DNA of 64,000 nucleotides from an uncultured Nitrososphaerota archaeon (GTDB taxonomy: Archaea > Thermoproteota > Nitrososphaeria > Conexivisphaerales > DTJL01): the NCBI GenBank assembly GCA_963842885.1, contig CAWJIE010000005.1:288001-352000 (forward strand), read 5' to 3'. The notes beneath the pieces are model-generated. The model was not told the origin of the DNA, did no database searches, and was given only the letters and a program-made list of their open reading frames with translations. The number at the start of each line of letters is the position of its first letter. The first letter of the stretch is position 1. The position numbers and the translations under genes were made by a program. Positions 1,756 through 21,743 of this stretch are shown one piece after another.

Positions 1756-1972
1756 GTTCGTACTTAAGCCGATTGCAAGCGGAAAGAGTCGGGGCTTCCT
1801 TCACATCTCCCCGTCTGAATTGACCAATTTCAACTACTCTTCTTGCCAGTCCCTCCTTTGACTCCAAACCCTTGATGCTCCGGAGCGTCCCGCCGGGCCG
1901 GATGTCTTGATTCTGAACAAGATAGGCCTCTTGAAAGCGACAGATCTGGGGGGAAGCACTCCAAAGGGCAGC

Positions 1973-2782
1973 CTATATCAAATCCAAGCCTTTCTTGATT
2001 TTCCTTCTGATAGTATGCGCAGTGCTTTGAGTCGTATAGGGTTTGCGGCAGCTTCGGCAGAGCCCGTCCCCATCCCATGCCAGCCGCGACCTCCGGATTC
2101 TTCGAAAGGTCTCCGATTCCCTCAAGCCGTCGTAGGATGTCTCCATCAGGTTCCCCAGCACATGTCTCAGCCCTATATCCATGTAGCAGAGGACCGTCGT
2201 CCCGTCGGGGAGCATTACGAACTTGGGCCCCGAAAGCGTAGGGCAAAGGAAGGGTCCTCGGAAGTGAAAGGGCGGCGAGTTCTTAGAGTTCCCCGCCCAA
2301 TAATGGTCGGGGAAGTACTTGTTCATTATCGATATGTCAAAGATATGGATCTTCATCAGTGTCAAGGAGAGGACCTCCTTATATTCGTCAGTCATGGGGA
2401 TGTTGGCGATCCCGAAGGGGTCGGGGAGGTGGAGGACGAAGCCGGCAGTGTCGACCCTGGCAAGTCGATCTACATCCGAAGGCTTCAGCCCAACGAGCGT
2501 CGAAATGACGCTCACATCATAGCCGCGGTCATGGGCGAGCTCAATCATGTCCACCGTCTGGGGATTGAGGAAGGGCTCTGAGAAACCGGAGAAGTCTATC
2601 CGCACATCGGTCGGAACATGCGAGAGGGCCTTTTCGAAGTCACCTAGCGAAAGCATGGATGAACCATGATATGCAGAATGGAGAAGCTGCTGAGGGCAAT
2701 AGGGGAAGCAATTCACCGTGCACGATGTGTTGGTCGTTATCAAGAGCCATCGCATGTCGGAAACTCTGGCTATCCTATGCAC
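1973..2782 (-). CDS. Radical SAM protein with C-terminal SPASM/twitch-like Cys domain
   Basis: CTVNCFPYC cluster motif, 'FSGFSEPFLNP', C-terminal 'CP...VMLPDGTTVLCYMD...LGNL...CRSC'. Confidence 0.8.
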   Translation of the reverse strand: MHRIARVSDMRWLLITTNTSCTVNCFPYCPQQLLHSAYHGSSMLSLGDFEKALSHVPTDVRIDFSGFSEPFLNPQTVDMIELAHDRGYDVSVISTLVGLKPSDVDRLARVDTAGFVLHLPDPFGIANIPMTDEYKEVLSLTLMKIHIFDISIMNKYFPDHYWAGNSKNSPPFHFRGPFLCPTLSGPKFVMLPDGTTVLCYMDIGLRHVLGNLMETSYDGLRESETFRRIRRSRLAWDGDGLCRSCRKPYTTQSTAHTIRRKIKKGLDLI

Positions 2783-3008
2783 TTGGCATTATTTGGAGCT
2801 TGCCTTTTGCACTCGGGACGCCACGCTGTGCTTCCTTCCCCGCTCACTTCTCGTTATTTGAATTCCTTCGTCTTGCCGCACTTCCTCGAACTCTGAGGCG
2901 CGCAGCCAACTGCCCTCGGCGTCATCAAGTATCTGCGCGTACCGGCGACAAAGACGTCAAGGCCTACGGTGCCCTGACGTCGGTCATCATAGGGGAAAGC
3001 GAATCCAA

Positions 3009-3170
3009 ATGGCTAAAGATCAGGCTCAGGGCGCAGTCATCCTTGCGGTCAGCCTTATTAGCGTCTTGCTCCAAGTTTACGTGATCTTCTTCTGGGTCGG
3101 CCTCCTGGAGATCGATGACCAGCCCGTGGCCTACCGGATGGTCCCCCAGTACAAGGGAGTCGCCCACTAG
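3009..3170 (+). pseudogene. Truncated paralog of the small membrane protein at 15068
   Basis: Translates MAKDQAQGAVILAVSLISVLLQVYVIFFW..., versus MAKDQSLGALILVVSIIGIILYGYLVFFW; lacks the second helix and the TPPP tail; below the ORF-track cutoff. Confidence 0.65.
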
Positions 3171-3209
3171 GGACGAACGGAGACCACGGGGCGTTCAGGA
3201 ATTGCTTAC

Positions 3210-3279
3210 GGTGATATTTTTAAACTATAAAGCTATTTGATGCTTCTATGGCTGATTCGGTCAGGACAGCCGTTATGAA
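3210..3279 (+). promoter_or_regulatory. Conserved ~70-bp upstream element, copy A (ends in BRE/TATA-like CAGCCGTTATGAA)
   Basis: Aligns with 10043-10111 (GATTCGGTCAgGACAGCCGTTAT vs GATTCGGTCAaGACAGCCGTTAT) and 15547-15616; followed by GTG-CTG-GAG-CTT (LEL ORF remnant). Confidence 0.6.
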
Positions 3280-3382
3280 CAGCTGGTAGAACAAGTGTCT
3301 GGGAGAGGAAGCTGTGCTGGAGCTTGGGCTCGGGGCGAAGGCTCGGTTGCCGACTGACTTTGGCCATCTCATCCAGCATGGC

Positions 3383-3446
3383 TGCCGGGCCTGGTGGGAT
3401 TGGCACCTATATGGGTTCGATAGTGAATTCGTCTCATCAGGATTCC
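3383..3446. repeat. att-like recombination site copy 1 (tRNA 3' end + conserved arm)
   Basis: TGCCGGGCCTGGTGGGATT (17/19 to tRNA end) followed by GGCACCTATATGGGTTCGATAGTGAATTCGTCTCATCAGGATTCC. Confidence 0.75.
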
Positions 3447-3465
3447 GCCCGGTCCAATTGCAGCC

Positions 3466-3642
3466 TTAATGATAACGGGAAAGTCCGGCTAGGTCGGCAT
3501 CTATGTGGTCTGGATCGTTCTTGTCGGGTACTCGATGGTTGCAATTAGTGCAACGCCATATGATCTTACTCTTGTCCACCACGGTTGGAACCAGGTACCC
3601 TTTTCCACACTTGGGACAAGGCGGATAGGCGGAGAAGTTCAT
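3466..3642 (-). CDS. Small Zn-ribbon protein (58 aa)
   Basis: MNFSAYPPCPKCGKGYLVPTVVDKSKIIWRCTNCNHRV...; CPxCG and CxxC pairs; not in the ORF track. Confidence 0.65.
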   Translation of the reverse strand: MNFSAYPPCPKCGKGYLVPTVVDKSKIIWRCTNCNHRVPDKNDPDHIDADLAGLSRYH

Positions 3643-3699
3643 CAATGAACGATCGATAGTAGTACAACTTGCCCGGGATTTAAGGTCACTCCAAACGGG

Positions 3700-3718
3700 G
3701 GTGGGCCGGGGCGGATTC
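3700..3718 (-). repeat. Isolated 3' fragment of a different tRNA (att remnant)
   Basis: Reverse complement GAATCCGCCCCGGCCCACC reads as T-arm 3' half + acceptor 3' strand + discriminator A + CC. Confidence 0.45.
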
Positions 3719-3770
3719 TAAGCCATATCGGTATTGAATAGGCCGTCTCAACAAAACTGGCCCTTCGGTT

Positions 3771-4155
3771 CTATGCTTTGAAACGGGTTTGGAGTGGACC
3801 CTTTGCTTTACCTCGTTTCAGATATGCCTTCATTGTCTCGCTACTTGGCGGCTCTTTCCATCTTCCGAAGTCGGCAAACGCCTTCCTAAGGTAGCTGCGA
3901 AGATAGTCCGGTGTCTGATGGCTGTAACTTCGCATTTGAATCCACTTCTCAACTCTCCCAACGAAGAGGTTGCAATCCTTACAAATTCACCCCCCTGACA
4001 ATTCCCGTCTTGTGGTCGTGGTCAACGACTACATACTCTTCAAACGTCTCTACGCCGCAAAGCTCACACTTCCCTTTGTTACTTTTGTATCGCCTGTGCC
4101 TCCATTCTCGATCTGACTTGACCTGGTCATAAGGAACGGGGGGCAGGTCGTCCAT
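3771..4155 (-). CDS. Recombination endonuclease VII-like HNH nuclease (one frameshift near 3985)
   Basis: CELCG...VVDHDHKTGIVRG then, in the shifted frame, ICKDCNLFVG: the DHDH..G.VRG..C..CN signature. Confidence 0.75.
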
Positions 4156-4415
4156 GACCACCGAAACACCCTTGCAGCTTAGATAACGGTTGCGTCCCGA
4201 CGCCAAACCCTAAATCCCCCACAGTAACTTTGGACGTTCAAGTACTCCAAAAGAGCGATCTATTTCGACTAAGAGATGACCAAGAGACCCACGGAGCACA
4301 CGATAGAGAACGTGCGGAGGTATCATATGCTGAAGAAATATGCGGCGAAACCTCCAGGGCAACAGCATAAGGCGATGTTCACCTTCTTATACTTCAATGA
4401 TATGAAGGCATATCG

Positions 4416-5061
4416 ATGAAAGGCTTCAAGATACGGCTGGGTATTCGGATAAGAATGCCTTTCCTGGTCTTGAGGGTGTCCACTTCAAGCGTCTCATACA
4501 GGCTGGGATTATATCCTAGACTTCGACGCATACAGAAGACGGGACTGCTTCTCAATGAGGGGAGTCTTGGTGTCTTGCTCTATGAGGATTTGGTGGCGAA
4601 TTATCTTCCGCCTTGGAGCCTCGAAGGGAAGACTGTCCTCGACATAGGGGCTGCATGTGGGGATACAACATGGTTCTTCTTTCGAACATGGGGCGAAGAA
4701 GGTCATTGGAGTCGAAAGCAACCGAAAGCAAATCTCTTACCTGAAGGCTAACAAGGAGAGGTTCGGCTGGAATCTGGACATCTACGAGGAGAAGTTTGAC
4801 CCTGAGAAGCACCTCGTACTCGACCATGATTTCATCAAGTGTGACATCGAAGGCTACGAGATGGAGCTTCTTCCCTATGTCAAGACGCTGAAGCCCTGCG
4901 TCGTCGAGGTTCACAACTTGTGGGAAGTGGAGCAGTTCCAGAAGGCCGGCTTTCAGCTTTGTGAAGCCACCTACAGGAGGCCTGGGCGTATGCATCATGG
5001 CGAACTACCCAAGGCAGCTGACCTCTGTAGTCACGTAGCGATAATCAACCTATTCTCTTGA
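4416..5061 (+). CDS. SAM-dependent methyltransferase, FkbM-like (frameshift near 4680)
   Basis: 'VLDIGAACGDT' + 'GAKKVIGVES' + 'FIKCDIEGYE' across two overlapping ORFs. Confidence 0.75.
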
Positions 5062-5405
5062 ACGGAGTGGGGCAATGTCAGACTATACTCGACTTCTTTG
5101 TTGCTTTCCGTTCTTTCCATTTCACATTACGCTTTGTCAGTAAGCCTCTCTGTGTGGTGTAAATAACAGTTGCCAAGCGCCAAACAACTCACTGCACTCC
5201 AGTCTTGTTCTTCTCTTATAAGCGTACCCTTGACCCTTCCAAAGGTGAGCCTGAACGACTCTGTCACCCATGAGAGCGCAATCCGTGTTTGTCTAGCCTA
5301 CGGGTTGGGCAGCTTAAGAACCACCAACGGCTGTGGGCCACCCTTCCGCCCTCGTTCAACTAAGACATTGATTTCGATAGCTCAAAGATGATTAAGCGAG
5401 AATGG

Positions 5406-6573
5406 TTACGCCGAATGCAACCTCACTCGCTTGATGTCTGGCCTGGGCCTGGGCTGGCTCATGGCTTTCGACAGCAGTCCGACTTTCTCCTTGATCTCAT
5501 CAACCTCCTTCCTCAGGGCAAGGTTCTCCTTTTCGAGCTCCTCCAACTTCTGCAAGGATGGCCCTTTAACCTGCTCCAGAATCGTCAGTTCCGGGACCGC
5601 CTTCAGGTAGTCCTGGAGAATCTCTTGAGATGTCGGCCGATAGTAGTCGTCTGCCAGCCCTACGTTGTGCCCCATGAGCATCTCGACATGTAGGGACTTC
5701 ATCTGCCTCTCGCATACGCTCTTGAAGAACTTCCTGAAGCCATGGTCGACCTGGAACTCGTGCCTATGCTTTCCCTGCTCTAGGGCTTTGCGGATGCCGG
5801 TGCCCTTCAAAGCATCCTCCATCATCCTCTTGATCCCCAGGCTCTTCAGGCGCTTGGGGATGTGAGGCTCCCCTTTGGCCAGCTTGTCCGGCTTGAAGAG
5901 ATCCCTGATCACCGGAGAATCGTTGCTGACCTTCTCGCCGCTGCTCTTCCTGAAGGCGATGTATTCGTCAAGAGCTTGATAACACTCTGGAGTTATGAAG
6001 CTGAAATACTCGTCTGAGGTCCCGGCATAGACCTTGACTATCCCAGCCACCAACTGCCCCTTCTGCTTCAACCTTCTCGATGTGACCCCAGTTCAGGTAA
6101 TCGAAGGCACCAACCTGATCCCTGAAGAGAGCATCAGAAGGACCGTCGGCTTGACCCGTCTGTCTGGATACGCGAGGATCCGTTTGACCTCCTCGACAGT
6201 CGGGATCCTGTCCTGGCCGTAGCTCCTCCCATGGGGGATCCTCCTCCATCTTCTTCCAGTTGAGGGCGATGTCGTTCATCTCGCAGAAGAGCTTTATCGG
6301 CTTGAAGTAGTTGGGGACAGTCGCCTCTGGGATCTCCTTCCTCTCTGCCCTCCCCTTCTGGAGCCGCATGTACTCGTTTATGACGAAGGTGGCCCACTGG
6401 CTGTCATCCTTGGCCCTCCTGGCGAAGCTGGAGGCTCTCTCATGGAAGGTGGGGCCTTCTACCTTGATGTGCCTGAGGAAGAGGTCCAGCCTCCTCTCGT
6501 ACTTCTCCTTCGTGACCGGGGACTTGATGGCATCATAGAATTCCGCCAAAGGGCCCGTCTATTCCGGCTCCAC
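5406..6573 (-). CDS. Tyrosine recombinase/integrase (frameshifted; in-frame TAG at 6559-6561 near the 5' end)
   Basis: Catalytic motifs SSGIR, HGFRKFF, LMGH and YYRP; starts directly beside the att copy at 6615. Confidence 0.85.
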
Positions 6574-6614
6574 AACCTTGGTGGCTAAGGAATCGTATCT
6601 GGGAACTCAAAAAG

Positions 6615-6678
6615 TGGCGGGCCCGGTGGGATTAGGACCTGTTTAGGTTCATCGTAGAATCTGTTGCAAGAAGATTCC
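6615..6678. repeat. att-like recombination site copy 2
   Basis: TGGCGGGCCCGGTGGGATT identical to the tRNA 3' end, followed by AGGACCTGTTTAGGTTCATCGTAGAATCTGTTGCAAGAAGATTCC. Confidence 0.9.
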
Positions 6679-6916
6679 ATGTCGCAAAAGACCAAGCCAT
6701 AGACCAATGAATCAAGGATAAGTCAAATCATGAGCTAGCAGGGTCCGAGGGCGAGTTGAGTCAAAGCTTTTGAGTAACTGAAGACTCGATTCTAGGCTGG
6801 TCATCGACGAAGAGGAACTAGAGGGATATGTGGCGGAAGGAATGCGGCAAGTGGAAAGGCTTAGTGGGGAGAGGTAGCGCGGATACACGAAGCACTAGAC
6901 GAAGGAGCAGGTCTCC

Positions 6917-7807
6917 TTGAGGTCGCTCTATGATACTTCTGAATATCAAGCAGTGTACGACGACCTTCACAGGAGTGTCAGCGAATCTGCTGAATATCTT
7001 GAGCCTGGTCCAAGTCGTTACCAAGCGACGAGACGCTTGCACGCCGTCGTTCAGTCGGTACTTCGGACTAATGCCGAGAGGTTATTGGATATAGGATGTG
7101 GAGACGGTATATACGCCATCATATTTGCAAGCCTTCGCCATGATTACGTAGGATGTGACGTGAGTCTCGTCAATCTTCGCAGAGTCTTTGAGTGGTCCGA
7201 GAGAAAGGGCCTTGACCAAAGAATCAATCTGGTGCTCTGCGAGATATCCTACCTGCCGTTCCGGGAAAAGGCCTTTGAGATGACGGTATGCAGCGAAGTA
7301 ATAGAACACTTGTTGAACCTTGGGCCCGCTCTAGAAGCTATGTCCAGGGTCACAGAGAACCTCATCATCAGCACACCATGCATCGGGTTTCCCTTAGTCG
7401 ACTTGGCTCTGACAACAAGGGTCTCGAAGTGGTCAATGAACAAAAGGAGAGTCATCCGGCAGTATGGTACCTACGAAGGATTGATGCGGATATTCAAAGA
7501 GAGCAATGCAACTCACACCAATCTATTCACTTTGACTCTGCTCAAAACGCTTCTTCGCAAAGCCGGTACGGAGGTGACTAAAGTTGAGGGTGCGGCCTTC
7601 CAGTTTCCTTTCATAGACGAAAGTAGAATTTACGATCACCGTAATCAGGAGCGTTTCTTCTCTTGGTTGGAAGAGACGTTCCTCAAGTGGATACCTTTGT
7701 TTGACATCCTTCTGGTGCGCCTCGGTCACCGCACCGTAATCTTAACATGTTCTCAGGCAAGTGCGAGAGAACCAGGCCCGAGTCCAAGCTCGATGAAGAA
7801 AGGGTGA
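6917..7807 (+). CDS. Class I SAM-dependent methyltransferase
   Basis: 'LLDIGCGDG', 'VGCDVS', 'LPF...F...CSEVIEHL'. Confidence 0.85.
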   Translation: MRSLYDTSEYQAVYDDLHRSVSESAEYLEPGPSRYQATRRLHAVVQSVLRTNAERLLDIGCGDGIYAIIFASLRHDYVGCDVSLVNLRRVFEWSERKGLDQRINLVLCEISYLPFREKAFEMTVCSEVIEHLLNLGPALEAMSRVTENLIISTPCIGFPLVDLALTTRVSKWSMNKRRVIRQYGTYEGLMRIFKESNATHTNLFTLTLLKTLLRKAGTEVTKVEGAAFQFPFIDESRIYDHRNQERFFSWLEETFLKWIPLFDILLVRLGHRTVILTCSQASAREPGPSPSSMKKG

Positions 7808-7864
7808 GGTTCTTCGGCCTCCTTACTGGCTCCTGTTACTGAAGGACCGACTTGGGGGCGCACA

Positions 7865-9111
7865 GTGAGTAATCGACATCTTGATAAGCAGAGCAGTCCG
7901 AAGTTAGCTTATTGCGATTGGCGAGCGAGTCAACAGATGAAGGTCCACGCAACAGTAATCTCTGATTCCAGGGAGTTATGTCGGAACGAAGATGAAATCG
8001 ACGCTTTCTTGAAAGAACACAGCCCAAATCCTTTCATGCTGTTCGCCTTCATGGCAAAACTGATGGACCTCAGAGCGAACGTCGATCAGACCCCTGCCGT
8101 CATAGTCGTCAAAGCGGACGACCGCATAATCGGCGTGGCACCGTTGGTCCTCAGACGGGTTAGCGGAATCCGTCATGCCGAATTCCTATGTCCGTACGCG
8201 TGTTCGCCTGATTTCGTGTTAGACCGAAAGTACGAATCGATAGCGCTGGAGACCATAATCGACGTGGTCATCAGGAGGCTCGGCTTAAGGTACCTCCTCT
8301 TGGATTTCGAGGCAGACTCTCCAAGCCTCCCAGCTTTGAAGCATGTATGCGAATCAGAAGGCATCCCCTTCTTTGAACAATCCAGCGAGCACCTGGTTCA
8401 CGGTGTGATTCCGGTGAACAGCTCCTGGGAGGACTACAGAAGAATCCTGTGGCAGCCGTCTTTCAAGAGAACTCAGGAACATCGAGAACAAGTTGAACAG
8501 AGAAGGCAGGTGGGAAGTTGCGCTCGTCGCGGACTATGAGGGGTACAGTGTGGAGGCTCTCTACGACAAGGTAATGGCCATCGAGAAGCAGAGTTGGAAA
8601 GAGGCATACAGACAGTTAACAGGGGAGTTCTGACTACAATGTAGAGTGGTCCCTGATGTCATCATCATCAACCAAAGACAACATCAGATTTCTGAGGCGG
8701 AAGGTCTGGTTCCTTGAGCTCGAGGGCCAGCCCGTAGCCTACTCCATAGTCCTTCAATACAAGGGAGTAGCGTACATCGTGAAGACTGCATTTGTCGAAG
8801 CGTACTCGAGGTTGGGGCCAGGGAGGTACATGATCTATGCTACGGTCAGGGGTTTGTTTGAAGACAAAGAAGTTGAGAAGATAGACTTCCAGACCTATTA
8901 TCCGATTGTCCGGTCCTGGCGAGTCAATTGCGTGAAGAGGGTCAGGATTAGACTGGGCAACAGGGCAATCGTGTATCTCGCGCATGCTAGGGCGTTGCTG
9001 AGAAGGACGATCAACTCCTCAAAGAAGAATGACGGACGTGCCGAGCACTCTGACACGGCACGATCGCAGTTGACCCAAGCAAAGAAAAGGCGCGTCTCGA
9101 GTCCGTCATAG
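7865..9111 (+). CDS. GNAT-family acetyltransferase, CelD/BcsL-like (frameshifted)
   Basis: 'RIIGVAPLV', 'SSWEDY', 'EKQSWK', 'LELEGQPVAY', 'YSRLGPG..MI', 'KIDF' across ORFs 7865-8539 and 8656-9111. Confidence 0.7.
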
Positions 9112-9351
9112 CTCGGTCCCCGCCAGCTACTCAAGCGAGAGCATACCACCACATGGTTCTCCAAGGGCGGTACCTTAGGGCACCATGGGAGAGCCTGCGT
9201 CGAGTCTCACCCGATCCGGTTTGGGTATGTATCTAAGAGCCCGGCTGTCGGCAGTGTCCTACTCCCGGTCTATCGGCAGTTGTAGCGGAGGCAGGATTGA
9301 CTCCTCGGCTATGCTGAAATAGGAGGCGAAGGTGCTTGTTCTAGGGGGTAA

Positions 9352-10032
9352 GTGGGCAAGATGGCCGAGCCGAACAGGCGCTATGACCTTTGCCAGAACC
9401 ACTATTCGGATTTCGTGTGCGCCTCCTCTCCCGCCCTTGAGAACGCTCCTTCTCCTGACTCTCTTCCGTTCACGTCCCTTCGCGGACCGTGGCGGAAGTT
9501 GATGAACACGGTTTGGTATGTGCACAGGTGGGGAATCACCGGGTACATCAAGAGGATGTTTTCCCCCGATTTTCCGAAGAAACGCGCTTCGGCGAGCGTT
9601 GCGGACCTGCCCACGTCAGCTCCCCAGTACGGCGTGCTGAACCTGCAGCCGGGAGACCTTGTAGAAATACGTTCCGAGAAGGAGATATTTTCTACCCTAG
9701 ACCGTAACCAGAAGCTCAATGGCCTGGCCTTCCAGCGTGAGATGAGTCATTTCTGTGGGAAGCGGTACAGGGTCTTCAAGAGACTCACGAAGATAATCGT
9801 CGAGTCTACGGGCGAGAAGCGGAACATAAGGTCGCCGACGGTGCTCCTCGAGGGCGTCATATGTGATGGAACCGAACACGGCGGCTGCGACAGGTCCTGC
9901 TTCCTCTTCTGGAGGGAGGAATGGCTGAGGAGGGTGGCCCCGGACGGCACCTTGTCGGGCATGCAGACTGGGCCAGCGGGACTTGAGCCGCGGCCAGCTA
10001 AGAGGCGCGTGATGACCAATAGCTGGTGCTAG
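9352..10032 (+). CDS. Conserved hypothetical protein (SH3-like N-part, Cys-rich CDG..HGGCDRSC C-part)
   Basis: 'LQPGDLVEIRSEKEIFSTLD...GLAFQREM..FCGKRYRV...CDGTEHGGCDRSCFLFWREEWLRRV' recalls a bacterial family seen near EPS genes. Confidence 0.65.
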   Translation: MGKMAEPNRRYDLCQNHYSDFVCASSPALENAPSPDSLPFTSLRGPWRKLMNTVWYVHRWGITGYIKRMFSPDFPKKRASASVADLPTSAPQYGVLNLQPGDLVEIRSEKEIFSTLDRNQKLNGLAFQREMSHFCGKRYRVFKRLTKIIVESTGEKRNIRSPTVLLEGVICDGTEHGGCDRSCFLFWREEWLRRVAPDGTLSGMQTGPAGLEPRPAKRRVMTNSWC

Positions 10033-10042
10033 GGGTGCAAAT

Positions 10043-10111
10043 GGTGATACTTCTAGACCATAACGCTTGAACATGCGTCCTTTTCGGATTCGGTCAAGAC
10101 AGCCGTTATAA
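10043..10111 (+). promoter_or_regulatory. Conserved ~70-bp upstream element, copy B (TATA-like CCGTTATAA)
   Basis: Aligns with 3210-3279 and 15547-15616. Confidence 0.6.
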
Positions 10112-10147
10112 GCGTCGGAAAGCGAATAGCCTTCCGGAAAGGATGTC

Positions 10148-10258
10148 ATGCTGGAGCTACAGCTCACGATGGAGCATCTGGGCTTTCCCATGAGATTCAG
10201 GCCCTTGATCCGGCGTAGCTGGCGCGCAGGTAGGAGTCCTTCAGGGGGACTGGCTTGA
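10148..10258 (+). CDS. Small ORF (36 aa) translationally coupled to the 72-aa gene
   Basis: MLELQLTMEHLGFPMRFRPLIRRSW...; its stop overlaps the next start (TTGA); similar to 15653-15817. Confidence 0.5.
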   Translation: MLELQLTMEHLGFPMRFRPLIRRSWRAGRSPSGGLA

Positions 10259-10473
10259 AGAGAGAACATAACGAAGAGGAAGAGGGGTATTTCACCTTCG
10301 AATGGGTCTGCCGCGACCCCGCCTGCTTCGATGAGGGGCACCTACACAGGAAGCGCATCAGTGCCCCGACCCTGGAGAAGGCCAAGGCGATAGCGAAGCT
10401 TCTGTCCATCCCCGACAACGCGAAGGTCATCGAAGAGGAAGAGCGGATGCTCAAGATGGCCATCGTATGGTGA
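10255..10473 (+). CDS. 72-aa hypothetical protein, paralog 1
   Basis: FTFEWVCRDPACFDEGHLHRKR...SIPDNAKVIEE; close paralog at 15814. Confidence 0.8.
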   Translation: MKREHNEEEEGYFTFEWVCRDPACFDEGHLHRKRISAPTLEKAKAIAKLLSIPDNAKVIEEEERMLKMAIVW

Positions 10474-10646
10474 ACCCCTGGAAGTCATTGCGGTTCCTTT
10501 CGGCCAGATGAGACAAGGATTAGCACGCCGGCTTCAAAGAATTGAAAGTCCGACCCGAGCCAATTAAGGGGCCAAGGTTGCCGGCACCAGCGATTCCCCT
10601 TGACCGATTCATAACGCTTAAACGTTCTACTCATTCTCTTGTCCTT

Positions 10647-11714
10647 ATGATTCCGGAAACAGCTTCGAACGCCGGGGAGCCGGAGTTTCGAAGAACTGAT
10701 TCGAAGAAGGTCGTTCTGGCAGTGTTGACGATTGTGGTGATAGCACTGGGCAGCGGGCTTGGCTATGTCTTGGTACAGTCGTCAAATGAGACTGGGAATC
10801 TGAATCAGACCATCACCTCCCAAAATCAGACCATCGCCTCCCAGAATCAGACCATCACCTCCCAAAATCAGACCATCGCCTCTCAGGAGCAGACACTCGC
10901 TTCACAACGTCAGGCCATCGTTTCCCAGAACTCCGAGATCTCGAGCCAGGCGGCACAGATAGCCAGCGATGGCGCAGAGGTGGCCAGCCTTAATTCCACG
11001 ATTTCCTCCCTTCAGTCCCAATACGCGAGCGATATTGCGCAGTTTGCCAACCTGACTTCGACCATCTCTTCGCTTCAGTCCCAGCTGGAGAGCGACAATG
11101 CACAGGTTGCCAACCTGACTTTGACCATCTCGTCGCTTCAGTCCGAAGTCACGTTGCTAGAGTCTGAGACTACGACCAACGAATCCGAGTTGGCCGCGCT
11201 GATCGCAGGGTACGCTCAGGCCAACCAAACGATCGCAACGCTAGATTCCCAGGCGGCAGCCCTCAACTCGCAGATCGCCATTTTGAACTCTCAGATTGCC
11301 GTCTATCAGGCCCAGGTCTCGTCTCTGAGCAGCCAGGTTTCTTCTCTGCAGGCCATGATCGGACTCTCGAACTCTACCCTGGAACTGAGTCAAGGAACCT
11401 TTTCCACGGGGTCGACGGAAGAAGTGCAGGTAGCCTCCTTTACAACCAGTTATGCCGGCTACATCGCCGTGAGGGTGTCGTCACCAACCGACTACGCAAA
11501 CGAGGGGATTCAGATATACAACAAGTTTGCCTCGAACATCGTGTCACCAAATTACGACAGCGAGTACCTTCCTATGCCTTACTACTTCTTTGACTTCTCC
11601 TCCGCTTCAGACACCCTGATATTCCCCGTGCTCCCGGGTAGCGTCACCGTATACCTTATGACCTCGGACACATCCGCCCAGAGTGCGGTCCTTTCGGTGA
11701 CCTACTACTATTGA
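10647..11714 (+). CDS. Membrane-anchored coiled-coil surface protein with C-terminal beta-rich domain
   Basis: One N-terminal TM helix, long Q/S/N heptad coiled coil, many N-x-S/T sequons; ORF track 10542-11714, ATG at 10647 preferred. Confidence 0.8.
   Translation: MIPETASNAGEPEFRRTDSKKVVLAVLTIVVIALGSGLGYVLVQSSNETGNLNQTITSQNQTIASQNQTITSQNQTIASQEQTLASQRQAIVSQNSEISSQAAQIASDGAEVASLNSTISSLQSQYASDIAQFANLTSTISSLQSQLESDNAQVANLTLTISSLQSEVTLLESETTTNESELAALIAGYAQANQTIATLDSQAAALNSQIAILNSQIAVYQAQVSSLSSQVSSLQAMIGLSNSTLELSQGTFSTGSTEEVQVASFTTSYAGYIAVRVSSPTDYANEGIQIYNKFASNIVSPNYDSEYLPMPYYFFDFSSASDTLIFPVLPGSVTVYLMTSDTSAQSAVLSVTYYY
10803..10886 (+). repeat. Four 21-bp tandem repeats encoding NQTI(T/A)SQ
   Basis: AATCAGACCATC(A/G)CCTC(C/T)CA(A/G) x4; 63-bp (21-aa) repeats follow near 11043 and 11106. 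Confidence 0.9.
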
Positions 11715-12310
11715 ATCTGTTCGTTTATTGTCGCTGGTCTCCGACCGAGGGTGAGCCTTAGGCAGCTCGTCCTGGCTTGAACCTGATGCCTGAAGTCCTA
11801 GCGCGGCCCCCGGACTTGGTGAGGCGAGGTGTGAAAGACGCATCGAGAGGAAATCGACTATGAAGAGGGTGATTTGGGTGGGCTTCCTTTTGGCGGTCCT
11901 CATATCGACTTCAGGCCATGGTTCCTGGGGAGCTATGTGACGAAGCCTCCGGGAACGTGGTTCATGATCTATTCCCTCGTGGACAGTACCCTGCTGACCT
12001 CCGATGCCGACATCCTTTGAGTCGCCGAGCGATCTGTCGGCGCTGGTTGGCGGGCTGTGAACGTTGTGCCACTGGCCTGCGCCAAGGGAGGCACCCCGAG
12101 TTGTTCGGTTGTCAAATGCTGTGGGATTTCCACCGCGGACGCTCCTTGCCGGTGGAGACAGGCCTTCTATCTCAGATGGCCAAATCGAAGTTTCGCCCAC
12201 AGTCTTCCCGACGCCGGAGTCTAGCCCGGCTGACAAATTCTTCAGCTCGTCTCCAGGCTGAATCCCGCCCACCCCTGCCCCATGGCGAGCGCTAGCCGGC
12301 GGTTTGATGC

Positions 12311-12397
12311 ATCTGAGGAATCTGAGACATTTGCTGAGGCATCTGAGATATTTGCTGATGATGAGGAATATGAGACGAACTACGTCAAAATGAGACG
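12311..12397. repeat. Cluster of short direct repeats (ATCTGAG / TGAGAY)
   Basis: ATCTGAG at 12311, 12320 and 12341; TGAGAC at 12323, 12371 and 12391; inverted ATCTCAGAT at 12169. Confidence 0.5.
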
Positions 12398-12577
12398 TTG
12401 GGCTTCCATCGAAGGCCCAATCCTCCCGCCTGGCCACCCTCTCTGTCGTTTCGTGCTGCAAAGTTCGCTTCTCTTGAGGTCGTCGGGAGGACACAGCGCC
12501 ATCGCCCCAGGCCTGTTCTCGATTTCTGTCGTCCCATGGCAACTGAGTTTAATAGGATGAGGGGCCATCTGGGAATT

Positions 12578-14209
12578 GTGCCGCCGCCGATACCCCTCGA
12601 AGTCAAGATAAGCATTCTGCGGAAGCATTTCGAGGGGTACGAAAACGAGGAGATACCTCATGGCAGGACGAAGGGCGGTGGCACTGTCACGAACGTCTTA
12701 AAGGAGTTTGAGAGTGAAGCTATGGTAGATTGGGAGGACGCGATAGATAAGTACGAAGTCAGAGATTTACTGGAGAACCTCTACGACCTGTCCAAGGCCT
12801 TGAAGGAGGCCGACGTCGCCCCCGAGGAGGCGATCGAAGGCGTCGAATTGGCCTCGACCCTGAAGGAGGCTGGCGTGACTCAGAAGCAGACGGAGTCATT
12901 CCTGAAGAAGCTGGTCAGGCAGGAGTCGAAGTATCCGGTCGATGTGATAGTGAAGGGGGCCGCCGAGCTCTACGACCTCGAGCTGGCCTACAAGAAGAAG
13001 TACCCGACCCTCCTGCATGACTTCAAGGCCAAGGGGGAGGAGTACAGGAAGCTGGAGGATTCCGTGGAGGTTCTCGGTGGGCAGAAGAGGGAGGCGGCTG
13101 CCGAGCTCGATAAGACTCTGCGTGCGAACGAGGTCACGAGGACGGACCTCAAGCAGTTCGTGGAGGCAAGGGATACGCTGCAGCGCTGCGGGGTGACGGT
13201 CGACGACCTGCCCAAGGTCGGGAGGATCATCGTCAACATGAAGGAGGGGGGGTTCGACGTGAAGAAGGTCATCGAGAGCTTCTCTCAGGAGCAGTCCCTC
13301 AAAGTGAGGACCGCCAGCGCCCAGTCCGAGCTGGCAGCCCTCGAGAGCAGGAAGGCCCCCCTCGAAGAGGCAAGAGAGCTCTACGAGAGGTTGACGTCCT
13401 ACGGATTCTCCATCGAATACATGAGTGCTCTGGCGAAGATAGCGTCGCATTACAAGGAGCCCGCAAAGTTCGCATCCGAGGTGGCCCAGGCCTACCAAGA
13501 ATATGGCCAACTCCTCGGCTTGATGGGCAAGCTGCATGGGCTTCAGGAGGAGATGATGATTATGGAGCTCAGTAAGCAAAGGGAGGAGGAGAAGAGCAAG
13601 CTCTCAAGGGCGGCTATCGCATCGATGCTCGAGCTGAAGAACCACGGCATCAAGGAGAACGAAATCGTGCTGATAGACGAAGTGATCAAGCAATACAAGA
13701 CCACCGAAGAGACGCTGGAGGCCATCTCGAGGCTGATGAAGCTGGACAACCTCTCTCAGCTGATTGACGAGAAGGCGGCCGAGCTCAGGGAGGTCAAAGG
13801 CCAGCTCGTCCAAGCGAACGCGAATATGGAGGCCCTTGATTCCCGGATGGACTCTCTCGAGGACCGGCTCGGGAGTCTTCCGGATGCATTGGCCACGGCT
13901 GAGGGGTTCATCGTGAGCACCCAGGAGTCCTACACCAAGAAGGCAGAAGAGATGGTGAGGACGGCGGTGGAGGCGGGCAAGAAGTACCAAGAGCGGATCC
14001 AGGAATACGAGTCCAAGAAGCAGTACATCCTCCTCGCCGTCCTTCTCGATAGGCCCTCGGAGGCGGACAGGGCATTTGTGAAGGCCTTCACTCTGGAGTA
14101 CCTGGACAAGATGTTGAAGTGGGCAGCCACAGCCAAAGGCGTAGTCAGCCCCTTGAACCTGCAGGGCGCGATCAAGGAGTTCCGGGGTGCGGTGGAAAAG
14201 CTCGCTTGA
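12578..14209 (+). CDS. Long coiled-coil protein with putative N-terminal HTH
   Basis: ORF 12398-14209; GTG start about 30 nt after TTTAATA; N-terminus 'KISILRKHFEGYENEEI...GGTVTNVLKEF' is HTH-like, remainder is E/K-rich coiled coil. Confidence 0.75.
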   Translation: MPPPIPLEVKISILRKHFEGYENEEIPHGRTKGGGTVTNVLKEFESEAMVDWEDAIDKYEVRDLLENLYDLSKALKEADVAPEEAIEGVELASTLKEAGVTQKQTESFLKKLVRQESKYPVDVIVKGAAELYDLELAYKKKYPTLLHDFKAKGEEYRKLEDSVEVLGGQKREAAAELDKTLRANEVTRTDLKQFVEARDTLQRCGVTVDDLPKVGRIIVNMKEGGFDVKKVIESFSQEQSLKVRTASAQSELAALESRKAPLEEARELYERLTSYGFSIEYMSALAKIASHYKEPAKFASEVAQAYQEYGQLLGLMGKLHGLQEEMMIMELSKQREEEKSKLSRAAIASMLELKNHGIKENEIVLIDEVIKQYKTTEETLEAISRLMKLDNLSQLIDEKAAELREVKGQLVQANANMEALDSRMDSLEDRLGSLPDALATAEGFIVSTQESYTKKAEEMVRTAVEAGKKYQERIQEYESKKQYILLAVLLDRPSEADRAFVKAFTLEYLDKMLKWAATAKGVVSPLNLQGAIKEFRGAVEKLA

Positions 14210-14877
14210 CACAGGGAGACCTCGTAATCGAGTATTCTGAGGCCCTGGACATGTATGTCGGCGCCTTCGGTTGGCTGGACGTGCTCCTTGCGCACACATC
14301 GGAGGCAATCCGCCGGTACGGGTCGCGAGAATTTGACGACAGTTGCTCTAGGGCTCAGGAAGCGGCGATGCTCATGGTTGAAGAGGAGCGACAAATGAAG
14401 GCCAACGACCAGACGGTCGATAAGCTAATGAAGATCTATGGAGACCTTTCGGGGGCTCGAGTCGAGGGTGAAGCCCCAAGGGTGGCTGCCAACATCAAAG
14501 AGGTCTTCGGGACTCCCAAGGCGAAGACCTATAGCAACGTCAAGCTGCTGGTGACGAGGGACGCGGTGGAGGCGGTCAACATCAGCGCGAAGTCTAGGGG
14601 CTCCGGCCTTGCCGAGGAGGAGGTCGAGCAGGAACAGCGGGCTCGAGGTGACCTCGTCGCCTTGGAGGAACTGGAGGCGTTCAGAAAGGAAGTCCGCCTG
14701 CACGTGTTCTTGGATGATGACGGGAGCGGTCACTTCATCTGCCCCAACTGCGATTCCGTCTTCAGCGACAGGTGCCGCACCTGTGGCAAGACCAGGGAGG
14801 AGCTCCTTGGTGGCGCACAGGTCCTCAAATCAGACAGAGCAATTGCTGTGAGAGGGTCCGGTCCCGTCAGCGGTTAG
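14206..14877 (+). CDS. Hypothetical protein with C-terminal Zn finger
   Basis: TTG start overlaps the upstream stop (TTGA); CPNC...CRTCG. Confidence 0.7.
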   Translation: MTQGDLVIEYSEALDMYVGAFGWLDVLLAHTSEAIRRYGSREFDDSCSRAQEAAMLMVEEERQMKANDQTVDKLMKIYGDLSGARVEGEAPRVAANIKEVFGTPKAKTYSNVKLLVTRDAVEAVNISAKSRGSGLAEEEVEQEQRARGDLVALEELEAFRKEVRLHVFLDDDGSGHFICPNCDSVFSDRCRTCGKTREELLGGAQVLKSDRAIAVRGSGPVSG

Positions 14878-15067
14878 CACCGGGCTCCTGCACCAAAGTC
14901 CTTTCGCAGCACTACTTGGCCGGCAACGGCCACGCCGCACCCAAATCCAGTAGCGGCCTTCTCTGTTTGAACAAAGAGCTCAGTGGGTTTCTCACATGAC
15001 GCATTAGCTAGCGTAACCGTTAAAAAGTGGGGACTGTCACATCTCGCGTAGAATCAGGTTAATTCAA

Positions 15068-15352
15068 ATGGCCAAGGATCAGTCTCTGGGCGCGCTCATC
15101 CTCGTCGTCAGCATCATCGGCATCATACTCTATGGCTATCTGGTCTTCTTCTGGAGGTCTCTAGTGGTCTTGGAGGTCACGGCCTTCCTGGCCATCCTCG
15201 GCGTGCTGGGCATCCTCGCCTGGATAGGTTACACTCTGGCCACCACACCGCCTCCGCAGCCCATAGAGGAGATCGAGAAGGAGCTGCAGGAGGAGGCGAA
15301 GAAGGCCTCAGGGGAGGCGGCGCCTGCATCCCCTCCCCCGACGCAGAAGTAG
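15068..15352 (+). CDS. Conserved archaeal two-TM small membrane protein (TPPP.PIEEIEKE family)
   Basis: Two hydrophobic helices + 'AWIGYTLATTPPPQPIEEIEKEL'; promoter-like CCGTTAAAAA upstream. Confidence 0.85.
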   Translation: MAKDQSLGALILVVSIIGIILYGYLVFFWRSLVVLEVTAFLAILGVLGILAWIGYTLATTPPPQPIEEIEKELQEEAKKASGEAAPASPPPTQK

Positions 15353-15546
15353 GAACTCATACCATTGTTGACTCCTCCGCTCCAGCGTCAGGACTGTCTG
15401 ATGCCAGGGGCTCCGCGGCAGGATTCAGTCTTCAGCTCCAGACCTGAGTGATGGCGCCCAAGAGCTGCGACATCGACAATGCCAGGGTGGCCTCTGAGGG
15501 CTCGTGATGGATGGCTCGTGTAGATGCTGTGAATTTGGTAGATAAT

Positions 15547-15616
15547 GGTTACGCTTTTAGATTATTAGACGCCCGAAAAATCCTACAAACCCCTTAGGTC
15601 GAGTCAGCCGTTAAAA
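15547..15616 (+). promoter_or_regulatory. Conserved ~70-bp upstream element, copy C
   Basis: GGTTACGCTTTTAGATTATT...GGTCGAGTCAGCCGTTAAAA, more diverged than copies A and B. Confidence 0.5.
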
Positions 15617-15652
15617 GGGCTTGGCGACAGCCTACTGTCAGGAGCGGGTGCA

Positions 15653-15817
15653 ATGCCGAGGGTGAAGAATGTTGTCGCAGCCCTTGTCCTAGCAACGCGA
15701 AGGAACCTTGTGGAGCTGAGGCTCCAGATGAGGTACATCCGCCCGCCCATGACCTGCTGGCCTTTCATCACAGTCAGCGGCTGGGCTGAGAAGGGTCTAT
15801 CGGAGGGAACCACTTGA
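15653..15817 (+). CDS. Small ORF (54 aa) coupled to the 72-aa gene
   Basis: ...LVELRLQMRYIRPPMTCWPFITVSGW...; TTGA overlap with 15814. Confidence 0.5.
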   Translation: MPRVKNVVAALVLATRRNLVELRLQMRYIRPPMTCWPFITVSGWAEKGLSEGTT

Positions 15818-16032
15818 CCAAGGAGATGGAAGAAGTAAGAAACAACTTCTTCACCTTCGAATGGATCTGTCGCGACCCCGCCTGCGTGGACGAGGGTTAC
15901 CTCCACAGGAAGCGGGTCAGGGCGCAGAGCCTAGAGAGGGCCAGATCCCTGGCGCAGAAGATGAGCATCCCCCAGGACGCCAAGGTAATTGAAGAGGTCG
16001 AGGAGAAGCTCAAGATGCTTATCCTCTGGTGA
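15814..16032 (+). CDS. 72-aa hypothetical protein, paralog 2
   Basis: FTFEWICRDPACVDEGYLHRKR...SIPQDAKVIEE. Confidence 0.8.
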   Translation: MTKEMEEVRNNFFTFEWICRDPACVDEGYLHRKRVRAQSLERARSLAQKMSIPQDAKVIEEVEEKLKMLILW

Positions 16033-16264
16033 GCCGTAGCCTTAGGGCTTTCGATACAGTCCTGCAGCGTGTTCGTCTGGCGCCAGAGCCTGAAACGACG
16101 AGCCACTTGCCCGGCCGTCGAATCATCCTCTGCTTTTCGGACTTTGCTTCCTTAGTGAAGCGCTCACGATGGACAGGCCACGGCTGTCGCTCGCCCGAAT
16201 GAAAGACCATCCAAGTTGCAGGATCCTTTTTGCATATCCGATACAACCGACGGTGAAGAACGAA

Positions 16265-16328
16265 TGGCTGGCCCGGTGGGATCAGTATCCGTCTGGGTTC
16301 GTTATTGAACTCGTTTCAATCAGATTCC
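16265..16328. repeat. att-like recombination site copy 3
   Basis: TGGCTGGCCCGGTGGGAT (17/18 to tRNA end) followed by CAGTATCCGTCTGGGTTCGTTATTGAACTCGTTTCAATCAGATTCC. Confidence 0.8.
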
Positions 16329-16479
16329 AGAAGGCAATCGAAGGTCCAGTCTTCTATCACGAGTCAAGCCGGCACACTCCAAATCGTAGCCAATGCATCC
16401 AAGGTTGTTCTATGGTTTAAGCGCGATTGAGGAACCAAACACAAGGAAGCAACAAGTGATGTATCTGAGGATCCCCAGC

Positions 16480-16773
16480 CTAGACCATTCCAAATGTGAT
16501 TTGAGCGAGCAGTATCAGAAGCACTAGCGAAACTATGAAGATTAACGATAATACCTTCCATCCTTTACTCATTCCTGAACCCCATATCAAGCCCAAACCG
16601 AAGGCTGTGAATCCGAGAGCGATGTCTTCATGATGCAAGACATCCTTCACTTGTATTAGGATTCCTATCTCGAAGTATTGTAGCAGCAAGACAACCCACG
16701 CCACCAAGAAACAGAACGTAGCAGCTATGGCCACCCTATTCGAACCCCGGCCCCCATGCCAAAAGCGCATCAT
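16480..16773 (-). CDS. Small three-TM membrane protein
   Basis: Three hydrophobic segments with 'LHHE' between helices 1 and 2. Confidence 0.6.
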   Translation of the reverse strand: MMRFWHGGRGSNRVAIAATFCFLVAWVVLLLQYFEIGILIQVKDVLHHEDIALGFTAFGLGLIWGSGMSKGWKVLSLIFIVSLVLLILLAQITFGMV

Positions 16774-16839
16774 GAATGAAATCTGACAGGGGAATGCAGA
16801 TAAAGATTGCCGAGCCTGCCTAGGAGCATCCATCTGACT

Positions 16840-17073
16840 ATCTGCCCGCTCCTTCTGAGAATCGCATGTACTCGTTGGTGGCGAGGGTAGCCCACTGGTT
16901 ATCCACCTTAGCCCTCCTCGCAAAGCTGGAGGCACCTGCACTGAACGTCGAGCCTTCTACCTTGATGTGCTTGAGGAAGAGGTCCAGCCTTCTTTCGCGT
17001 ATTCCTCCTTCGTGACCGAGGAATTCGTGGCGTCATGGAACTCTGTCAAAGGGTCCGTCTGTTCCGGCTCCAC
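16840..17073 (-). pseudogene. 5' remnant of a second integrase gene
   Basis: DNA collinear with 6345-6614 (e.g. CTTGATGTGCyTGAGGAAGAGGTCCAGCCT, CCGGCTCCACAACCT) and likewise abutting an att/tRNA end. Confidence 0.85.
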
Positions 17074-17114
17074 AACCTCAGTAGCTAAGGAATCCTATCT
17101 AGGAACTCAAACAG

Positions 17115-17193
17115 TGGCGGGCCCGGTGGGATTCGAACCCACGACCACGAGCTTCGGAGGCTCGCACCCTAATCCAGACTAGGCTACGGGTCC
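17115..17193 (-). tRNA. tRNA-Arg (anticodon CCG), CCA encoded
   Basis: Anticodon arm CGAGC-CTCCGAA-GCTCG, T-arm GTGGG-TTCGAAT-CCCAC, 3' end G-CCA; A3-C70 mismatch in the acceptor stem. Confidence 0.95.
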
Positions 17194-17326
17194 AACATGG
17201 GGTACAAAGCGCACCTTGAAATGCTTTGGCCCTGGGATCGTGGGCTAATGACCTCCGGCGCCCATCGTCGTCACATGAATTGGCGGCTCGATCGCAGCTG
17301 TCTCCCTACGATTTGCCTTTCCAACT

Positions 17327-18385
17327 ATGAAACGTCTCGCGGCCCACCAAAAGTTAAATAGCCCTGCGAGTGTCCTAGCTACGGATTTGAAGGGGCTGAA
17401 CGCGGAGTCCGAGCTCTCGATGTCTTGGGTCGTTCGGAACTTCGCCTACGAGAAGCTCACCAAGGTAGTCTCCATCCAGGAGAGGTTCTCGAACCACTAC
17501 TTCTTCGATCCGCCCATCGACAAGGAGATAACCGTCCCCTTCGCCAACATCCTCAACGCGCTCACAGTCCTCGAGAACTGGGGCTACATGAGCAGCTCGA
17601 AGTCCGTCACGCGCTACTGCGTCGAATGCTTCACCATGGGGCTCAACGTGGCCGGGAGGTGCCCCTTCTGCGGCTCCACTCGCATCAGGAAGGGGAAGAT
17701 CTTCGCCCACAAGTGCGGCTACAGGGGGTTCGAGGAGATCTTCCGCATGGGCGACAAGTGGGTCTGCCCGAAGTGCCAGAAGCAGCTCTACATGGAGGGA
17801 GGCGACTACAAGGACGAAGGAGGCCAGTTCAAGTGCATGACCTGCGGGAACATCTTCGAGAAGTTCGCCACCTTCTACCAGTGCCCCAACTGCCACACCT
17901 ACTACGAAGAGGAGCAGGCGCCCTCCATCGAGTTCATCACCTACAGCCCCACCAACACCATGATCACCAGGAAGGCGACCCTGAAGAGCGCCTACAACGT
18001 CACCGAGAGGGTGGCCCAGTACCTGCAGAAGTCCGGCTTCGAGCCGAAGATGTATTCGCTGATGGAGATGAAGGAGGAGTTCTTCTTCTGGGACGTGATA
18101 GCGAAGAAGGAGGCCAACGAGCCGGGGGCCGCCATAGGCGTGAACACCCTCCCGCTCTTCGACATCATCGACGAGGACTTCGTCAAGGAGCTCATCGAGA
18201 AGAAGGAGAGGTGCGACTTCCACTCGGTCCTCTACATCACGCCCGCCCAGGTGGCGAAGGAGTTCGTCGCGAAGCTGAAGGCCAAGAACATCTTCATCGT
18301 GGACCCCAGGTTCGAGACTCTCATGAATGAGGAGGTCCTGAAGGAATACATCAGTCCGCTGCTTAAGGTGGACAAGGGGCGCTGA
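17327..18385 (+). CDS. TackOD1 (thaumarchaeal output domain 1) multi-Zn-finger protein with possible nuclease-fold C-terminal domain; true start probably 17387 or 17420
   Basis: CVEC, CPFCGS, HKCGY.G.EE.F, CPKCQKQL...GGDY, CMTCG..F, CPNC series. Confidence 0.75.
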   Translation: MKRLAAHQKLNSPASVLATDLKGLNAESELSMSWVVRNFAYEKLTKVVSIQERFSNHYFFDPPIDKEITVPFANILNALTVLENWGYMSSSKSVTRYCVECFTMGLNVAGRCPFCGSTRIRKGKIFAHKCGYRGFEEIFRMGDKWVCPKCQKQLYMEGGDYKDEGGQFKCMTCGNIFEKFATFYQCPNCHTYYEEEQAPSIEFITYSPTNTMITRKATLKSAYNVTERVAQYLQKSGFEPKMYSLMEMKEEFFFWDVIAKKEANEPGAAIGVNTLPLFDIIDEDFVKELIEKKERCDFHSVLYITPAQVAKEFVAKLKAKNIFIVDPRFETLMNEEVLKEYISPLLKVDKGR

Positions 18386-21280: not shown

Positions 21281-21291
21281 GTTGATTGTAC

Positions 21292-21735: not shown

Positions 21736-21743
21736 GTCACACC

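Follow-up and report, generated by a model that had tools for sequence, protein, structure and literature searches.

In the accretion model for genomic islands related to ICESt1 and ICESt3 of Streptococcus, elements of the same specificity integrate successively at the 3' end of one tRNA gene, the islands are composite, and decayed members persist as cis-mobilizable elements (CIMEs), which are integrase-less yet still bounded by attachment (att) sites (PMC5704250). Archaeal elements that carry a tyrosine recombinase also form arrays by re-using their integration site (PMC6563490), and integrated archaeal elements may be integrase-less through loss after integration (PMC8371274). The present analysis concerns a 64,000-nt stretch of contig CAWJIE010000005.1 (assembly GCA_963842885.1, positions 288001-352000, forward strand), hereafter the window, from an uncultured peat archaeon of the Nitrososphaerota, order Conexivisphaerales. 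The host genome (G000) comprises 2.03 Mb in 11 contigs, designated by C-numbers, with a GC content of 58%. An island anchored at tRNA-Arg(CCG) in this window was probably built by repeated site-specific integration of cryptic elements sharing one integrase family. An earlier note on the same DNA had read the locus as an integron- or tycheposon-like system of cassettes.

The window elements are members of the cryptic integrated elements of Thaumarchaeota surveyed by Krupovic et al. (2019; PMC6563490), with which they share the phylum, a tyrosine recombinase and the use of tRNA genes. In the surveyed elements, as the part of the paper used here describes them, the att core has a median of 17 bp, against 19 here, the integrase is, as here, the sole conserved gene, restriction-modification genes likewise occur as cargo, and boundaries were set by direct repeats only. 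We found no mention in that part of the paper, its supplementary att table excepted, of an arm beyond the repeat or of Conexivisphaerales. The tycheposon islands of Prochlorococcus (bioRxiv 10.1101/2020.12.28.424599, cited for its account of island structure) are likewise tRNA-anchored, with side-by-side elements separated by partial tRNAs, fragmented integrases, scattered partial tRNAs, an integrase that is located at one end and points inward, and mostly no intact element. Unlike tycheposons, which belong to another domain of life, the elements described here show no replication hallmark genes: Pfam and PHROG scans of 34 open reading frames (ORFs) of the window or of a related element on C4 returned no primase, helicase or excisionase, though many ORFs were matchless and remote homologues could escape such scans. 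The tycheposon-like label of the earlier note is apt by analogy for the way in which the island grew, and does not extend to family membership. Finally, the att sites of SNJ2-type integrases from haloarchaea possess P and P' arms beyond the core that are highly conserved between hosts (PMC5861418, in the passages on att sites). The integrase family differs there, and the SNJ2 sites were experimentally tested, whereas the arm described below is defined by comparison alone.

Three 64-bp sites and their shared arm

ARAGORN detects a single tRNA gene in the window, tRNA-Arg(CCG) (17115-17193, minus strand; Rfam RF00005, 58.8 bits), whose 3' end forms the attB/attR core, and Rfam at E ≤ 0.1 finds nothing besides this tRNA in positions 1-22000. 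Its final 19 nt reappear as their reverse complement on the plus strand, exactly at 6615 and with two mismatches each at 16265 and 3383. The cores at 3383, 6615, 16265 and 17115 share one orientation, making them direct repeats of the att core. A 45-bp arm follows each of the 19-nt copies, and the three resulting 64-bp sites align gap-free; a repeat finder reports one 65-nt family with three copies in the window. Read from the left, these plus-strand sites are D (3383-3446), the leftmost recognisable one and the attL of a 3.2-kb unit; C (6615-6678); and B (16265-16328), the attL of a 0.85-kb remnant. Their start-to-start distances are 3232 and 9650 bp, and 850 bp separate 16265 from the tRNA. 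The earlier note had the coordinates and unit sizes of this array right.

On the integrase side of the core stands a second flank, here called the P flank, which is found on the minus strand upstream of the integrase start (6550-6614) and, as part of the tRNA-proximal remnant, at 17050-17114. The two are 82-85% identical, and the latter is alignable with the flanks on C4 and in the genome G002. Both contain the GGAATC that the earlier note had pointed out (6589-6594 and 17089-17094), in each case 20 nt ahead of the core. Similarity continues into the gene: 6341-6639 and 16838-17139, which take in the gene 5' end, the 65-bp flank and the core, agree at 82% of positions over a length of 302 nt. 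Together with 6550-6614, site C makes up a tandem junction in which P flank, core and arm adjoin in the layout of an attP. The 64-bp sites are attL junctions of cryptic integrative elements, composed of a tRNA-derived core and an element-side arm.

A pattern of the arm matches the window three times against 0.00 expected (100 shuffles), a test that adds little since the pattern was derived from the same three copies and is therefore circular. A hidden Markov model (HMM) of the arm only, trained on the three window copies, found two more in the genome, at C2:90573 (E 4.7e-8) and C4:70153 (E 9.7e-5), and it is their discovery by a window-trained model that places recurrence of the arm beyond chance. 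The profile scan of this and related genomes proposed in the earlier note did yield further full sites. On C4, the site at 70134 bounds a 7.6-kb element adjoining tRNA-Arg(TCT) (C4:77715-77793); another lies at C2:90554; the sister genomes contribute G003:C30, adjoining tRNA-Arg(GCG), as well as G002:C62 and G002:C50; and three peat-metagenome contigs carry a full site too. The arm is common to elements at tRNA-Arg CCG, TCT and GCG. Model R1, run against 101 genomes, matched 45 at E ≤ 0.01, nearly all of them only over model positions 1-26/28, which are tRNA ends; its full-length matches come from 3 of the 101 genomes, all of one genus.

Ten copies of the site, three of them retrieved by a pattern fixing many arm positions and four by a site model, align without gaps and share 22 invariant columns, with a mean pairwise identity (45 pairs) of 0.80 in the core and 0.73 in the arm, which falls to 0.27, the random level, in the 45 nt on each side. 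That the arm belongs to the element is indicated by metagenome contig L135: compared with C4:70134, its chromosomal flank is 91% identical over 139 nt including the core, the arm variant and the cargo differ, and the two sequences rejoin only at a conserved integrase-proximal piece of the C4 element. The arm is thus carried along by the element, and elements replace one another at an attB that stays in place. The view of the earlier note, in which elements with a tyrosine integrase are stacked at a tRNA and the sites are the scars of their recombination, is supported. Some cores are hybrid: the first 2 nt on C4 and the first ~10 nt on C2 are non-tRNA-like, and the last 7 nt in G003:C30 differ from the local tRNA, which suggests that strands would be exchanged in the central CGGGCCCGG segment.

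Other families (G063, G057, G006, G039 and G061) give partial matches, in which only the proximal arm (...CTATATnGGTTC...) is kept. Two further att-like sites of the host genome, at C2:112990 and C5:36147 (minus; L003 and L004), have cores from other tRNA 3' ends (...GGGCCCGAAGGGAC) and retain the proximal motif (...TGGGTTC-N6-...), which suggests, at the sequence level, related integrase subfamilies sharing the site architecture. Both sets of matches hint at a feature older than the genus. Among 38 related tRNA-plus-integrase loci of 10 kb each, an exact distal repeat of at least 13 nt was present in 4; when up to 3 mismatches were allowed, 4 of the 36 loci with enough sequence had one, two of these probably by chance. 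Three of those distal repeats show a GGTTC-containing stretch after the core, too few to generalise. Hexamers of the type GRRYYC recur at site positions 5, 31, 43 and 58, with 42 observed over the ten sites against 5.3 expected in shuffles, a post hoc count on homologous copies and so a lead only. With regard to viral origin, a 23-nt proximal-arm pattern matches six IMG/VR contigs, none of which has the rest of the site, a 33-nt arm pattern has no match, and an integrase-profile scan of viral contigs returned no relatives. The earlier note knew of no description of the arm, and the literature searched, supplementary tables excepted, contains none for this integrase family.

A divergent integrase family and its decay

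The elements encode a divergent tyrosine recombinase of ~377 aa, which has two domains and, at its C-terminus, a coiled-coil helix. The motifs SSGIR, HGFRKFF, LMGH and NYY are found in the alternating-frame translation of 5406-6549 and in homologues. One homologue from public data, P0001, is intact at 377 aa. An AlphaFold2 model of P0001 (mean predicted local distance difference test score 82.2) was compared with the PDB by Foldseek and matched XerA best (5hxy, E 2.4e-9); Cre and lambda Int(75-356) rank next among 67 matches at E ≤ 0.001. As modelled, the fold is that of the tyrosine recombinase superfamily, with a core-binding and a catalytic domain, and a long C-terminal helix is predicted at 341-376. 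The residues of the catalytic pattern R...HxxR...H/W...Y, namely R154, H278, R281, H303 and Y311/Y312, are invariant among 20 homologues of 47-95% identity. The divergence shows in the sequence searches: the integrase query scores 12.5 bits against the Pfam family PF00589 (cut-off 27.1), a family precomputed for 15 of 120 listed homologues, and a sequence-profile search of the PDB gave no matches at E ≤ 0.01.

We retrieved 1191 homologues at E ≤ 1e-5 among 1776 candidates, and those that are named come from Nitrososphaerota. In 38 of the 80 related loci compared, a tRNA on the strand of the integrase ends within 400 bp upstream of it. Judged from these comparisons, the family is widespread in Nitrososphaerota and usually located directly downstream of a tRNA gene. 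The order of the layout is tRNA, core, P flank, integrase, cargo, arm, core, and the P flank of the G002 and C4 copies has a TATA-like TTAAATAG. We also considered a split ("suicidal") integrase of the SSV type, whose ORF contains attP and is parted between the two element ends on integration, and ruled it out: an in-frame stop separates the core from the integrase start (window and L038), and with the whole gene on one side of the core and a stop before its start, this is not an SSV-type element.

The integrase of the 3.2-kb unit (5406-6549, minus strand) is a full-length pseudogene with three frame changes, near 6245, 6113 and 6065, as seen in a three-frame translation and in tblastn against P0001, which requires two frames. 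Relative to it, contigs of related strains are 2 nt longer at 6244-6247, 1 nt longer at 6113 and 1 nt shorter at 6065. The 0.85-kb unit retains a 5' stub (16754-17049, minus strand; tblastn 16754-16996 and 16990-17067), of which only the first ~45-70 codons are recognisable, and tblastn finds no integrase in 6615-16264, though this stretch is bounded by cores. The order of units in the earlier note accordingly stands for the stub and for the integrase-less 9.6-kb stretch, and fails for the integrase that it had called full.

Outside the window, the C4 copy at tRNA-Arg(TCT) has at least five frame switches. The host genome also encodes two intact paralogous integrases (C5:357421-358485 and C4:323415-324515), 33-37% identical to the member studied here; the translation just upstream of the second resembles a tRNA T-arm, so this gene probably sits at a tRNA fragment. 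Because both cognate integrases (window and C4) are broken and the other paralogues are distant, the genome contains no intact cognate integrase, which leaves the array frozen as long as none is provided in trans. In G002 the integrase frame is open over 293 codons at both tRNA-Arg(CCG) and tRNA-Arg(TCT), the contigs breaking inside the gene; in G003, contig C85 has an integrase with an internal deletion and also a P flank alone, adjoining a radical S-adenosylmethionine (SAM) gene. The decay series is complete: intact, frameshifted, internally deleted, reduced to a 5' stub, reduced to the P flank, and absent. That every stage of integrase decay is visible fits accretion and decay.

Strain turnover, units and cargo

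Strain comparison used assembled Logan contigs from four of the ten listed metagenome runs, aligned to 2500-17600, an interval that no contig from the four runs spans. Contig depth over 11890-16305 exceeds that over 7800-11900 in X1 (~21x versus ~5x) and in X3 (~9x versus 2-4x), and a contig of X2 joins 12119 to 6615. Metagenome contig L134 matches 12033-12137 (93%) and continues directly into a P-flank remnant, core and arm, where the window has unrelated sequence. The depth break, the X2 joint and L134 together identify the 9.6-kb stretch as composite among strains, with a former unit boundary at ~12033-12137; the earlier note had treated it as one coherent block. Further joints, each in a single contig (3164-12033, 2840-6858 inverted, 12042-7919 and 16305-17005), reflect the arrangements of other strains. 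None of these contigs contains a joint 3383/6615, 6615/16265 or 16265/17115, which is uninformative either way since assembled contigs drop rare forms.

Genomes likewise differ in the order of units. At the same locus G003 has, outward from the tRNA, a 1.3-kb unit; a deleted integrase with P flank, core and short arm; a 2.4-kb unit; and a P flank with core, which abuts a radical-SAM gene orthologous (87%) to window 1973-2782. With the G003 arrangement, L134 and the X2 joint, unit content and order at tRNA-Arg(CCG), which the earlier note had asked to see compared across strains, are not invariant. Leftward synteny is broken by an inversion in G005, which belongs to another genus, and the right flank differs in G002. 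At tRNA-Arg(GCG), G003:C30 (L043 8377-9782) carries a 1.33-kb integrase-less unit between the tRNA and a core plus arm. Its single ORF, of 345 aa, has DSSGNYIV-type (NHL-like) repeats and a hydrophobic tail at the C-terminus, and G000, G001, G002 and G004 have only 137-513 bp in its place. Since the first ~100 nt after this tRNA are unalignable among the five genomes, the insertion is evident only at the kilobase scale.

The units of 0.85, 3.2 and 9.6 kb contain several genes on both strands. The cargo of the 3.2-kb unit (3447-5405, mixed strands) comprises a Zn-ribbon ORF (3466-3645, minus), an endonuclease VII fragment (3979-4206, minus) and an FkbM-type methyltransferase broken into a pair of overlapping frames (4416-4751 and 4657-5061, plus). 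The integrase-less composite stretch (6679-16264), whose right end has no P flank, was scanned against Pfam and includes a SAM methyltransferase (6917-7807) and an Acetyltransf_6-like gene split into two ORFs (7865-8539 and 8656-9111), along with a surface-type protein of 390 aa that is rich in repeats (10542-11714), a coiled-coil protein of 603 aa (12398-14209) and the small genes p94 (15068-15352) and p72 (10255-10473 and 15814-16032). Decay extends to the cargo: besides the split and fragmentary genes, this stretch differs from contigs of related strains, which are 1 nt shorter at 8442, 8627 and 10000. The 390-aa protein has an N-terminal hydrophobic segment, coiled-coil matches and, at 10782-10949, six 21-bp tandem repeats that encode NQTI(T/A)SQ heptads with N-x-T sequons, at which strains vary by 42-63 bp; from its sequence it is probably a glycosylated surface protein. 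The element on C4 (70134-77793; L001 6135-13794) carries a 941-aa Eco57I/MmeI-like N6-methylase of the fused restriction-modification type.

Left of site D, 3002-3331 is a patchwork of fragments homologous to genes of 6679-16264: 94 nt at 3002-3095 are 74% identical to 15061-15154 (the p94 5' end), 3095-3163 resembles 8703-8771 (Acetyltransf_6-like) and 3210-3276 resembles 10043-10109 (upstream of p72). The earlier note saw the same small-gene module here, of which only the 94-nt fragment and these other pieces exist. Farther left, window 205-2782 and, left of the window, C5:283505-284512 contain genes for a Wzx-like protein of polysaccharide synthesis and a radical-SAM protein with a SPASM domain, together with a paralogue of the Acetyltransf_6-like gene; the island merges leftward into this surface-polysaccharide gene region, whose order varies among sister genomes. 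On the other side of the tRNA, behind a gene for a T2SSE-type secretion ATPase (18560-20257, minus), three small paralogues stand in tandem (20827-21285, 21282-21581 and from 21926), which share a 57-nt block reading as a hydrophobic pilin- or archaellin-like N-terminus. This adjoining region (18560-22330) looks like a type IV pilus-like locus.

Accretion and decay weighed against other explanations

In the explanation that we consider probable, the 19-nt core is the stretch common to element and tRNA 3' end at which strands would be exchanged, and the 45-bp arm would be the element-side (P') part of attP, presumably with additional sites to which the integrase or a helper protein would bind. 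The flank between core and integrase start would be the other half of attP and looks like the integrase promoter too. New elements would have entered at the core, pushing older ones outward to decay: integrases suffered frameshifts, truncation or deletion, the cargo underwent rearrangement and one junction or more disappeared, leaving CIME-like remnants. The order of these events and the exact crossover position are reconstructed in this scheme. Between its cores 6615-16264 is integrase-less and 16265-17114 keeps only a stub, as in CIMEs. Unlike in the Streptococcus islands, the host is archaeal, no conjugation genes were seen and remnants also lack the integrase-side flank; cis-mobilisation would apply here by analogy only.

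Several observations weigh against accretion and decay. The P flank is absent right up to the core left of 16265, left of 3383 and beside tRNA-Arg(GCG) in G003:C30, and simple internal deletion does not predict ends that are so precise at the cores; aberrant site-specific excision removing integrase and P flank, or insertion in trans, both fit these integrase-less units. The binding function of the arm is itself a prediction, and the AlphaFold2 model shows no separate N-terminal arm-binding domain of the lambda type. Since seven of the ten copies were retrieved by means of the site itself, through a model or a pattern derived from it, the identity of the arm is overestimated; its sharp edges are free of this bias. 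Lastly, the three indels of the window integrase fall within a span of 190 bp and may stem from errors of local assembly; general assembly noise is argued against by open neighbouring ORFs of 516-941 aa and by coding indels in multiples of three at 11.9-16.3 kb.

The precise ends at the three cores (6679-16264, left of 3383 and G003:C30) are what would be expected if core and arm were a self-sufficient portable signal and integrase-less units were non-autonomous cassettes moved in trans at tRNA-Arg, an archaeal analogue of integron cassettes or satellites. We regard this as unlikely. It can draw on the single-ORF unit of G003:C30, missing from four sister genomes, on C2:90554, where the arm is well kept and the left half of the core is non-tRNA-like, as after secondary-site insertion, on content that differs among strains after a given junction, and on intact integrases in the genus. 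The complete decay series, however, accounts for integrase-less units without a special mechanism; no unit was seen twice at different sites among the genomes and contigs compared; the 9.6-kb "cassette" is composite, and its cargo looks frame-broken at 8442 and 10000 relative to other strains; there is no attC-like hairpin or covariation; and both cognate integrases of the genome are broken. Serial units separated by a recurring recombination site, and a tyrosine recombinase, do recall integrons. Integrons differ in having a single platform integrase with attI and a cassette promoter, and cassettes that mostly hold one promoterless ORF with an attC at its end, whereas here integrases or their remains stand at the tRNA-proximal end of individual units, the units are multi-gene and once autonomous, and the site is a tRNA-derived core with a linear arm instead of an attC-like imperfect palindrome. 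The integron-like system of the earlier note is not supported: units are heterogeneous, each originally with its own integrase, and integrases are now in all stages of decay; the genome has no intact cognate integrase; integrase-less units also lack the integrase-side flank; and the contigs show no excision or empty-site joint between the sites. The stronger proposition, that an integrase of the family acting in trans captures, excises and reshuffles integrase-less units, down to the 1.3-kb NHL-repeat gene unit, at three tRNA-Arg genes, seems slightly more doubtful still; if true, such capture would make these units a functional counterpart, in archaea, of integron cassettes, by which surface and defence genes reach a hypervariable island.

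Conservation of the arm as a feature of a transcript (structured RNA, promoter or terminator) instead of a recombination site is improbable. RNAalifold draws plus-strand helices at columns 5-16/24-36 and 43-48/58-63, and the TATA-like motif of the integrase-side flank could be read in favour of a promoter. Yet pairing in these helices on the ten copies (86.5%, with one compensatory change) is no better than in shuffles (86.2%), 233 of 500 of which reach it. On these figures, and with the tRNA as the only Rfam match, we rejected the RNA-structure reading of the site. The arm, moreover, always abuts the core at a fixed, gap-free distance, and gene content and strand after it vary. Least probable of all is plain segmental duplication of the tRNA-proximal region without element mobility. 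It would explain the 302-nt match between 6341-6639 and 16838-17139, but resemblance among the three sites ends abruptly at 64 bp, identity in the flanks being 27%, and different DNA is bounded by this site elsewhere: at two more tRNA-Arg genes, on another contig, in sister genomes and on metagenome contigs.

Growth by accretion and decay is a familiar route, and on present evidence the locus is no new gene-capture machine or kind of mobile system. Its interest lies elsewhere. The ends of integrated elements in Nitrososphaerota are difficult to place, given att repeats with a median of only 17 bp and a minimum of 8 bp in the surveyed set (PMC6563490); a 45-bp arm at a fixed distance from the core is a specific end marker for this integrase family, and here it exposed integrase-free remnants. 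P flank, core and arm, together with an intact integrase sequence, offer a defined substrate for the first biochemistry of a thaumarchaeal integrase. With cargo that includes surface-polysaccharide, surface-protein and restriction-modification genes, the locus documents a bacterial-type accretion-and-decay route to a hypervariable island in Conexivisphaerales, a little-studied order that does not oxidise ammonia.

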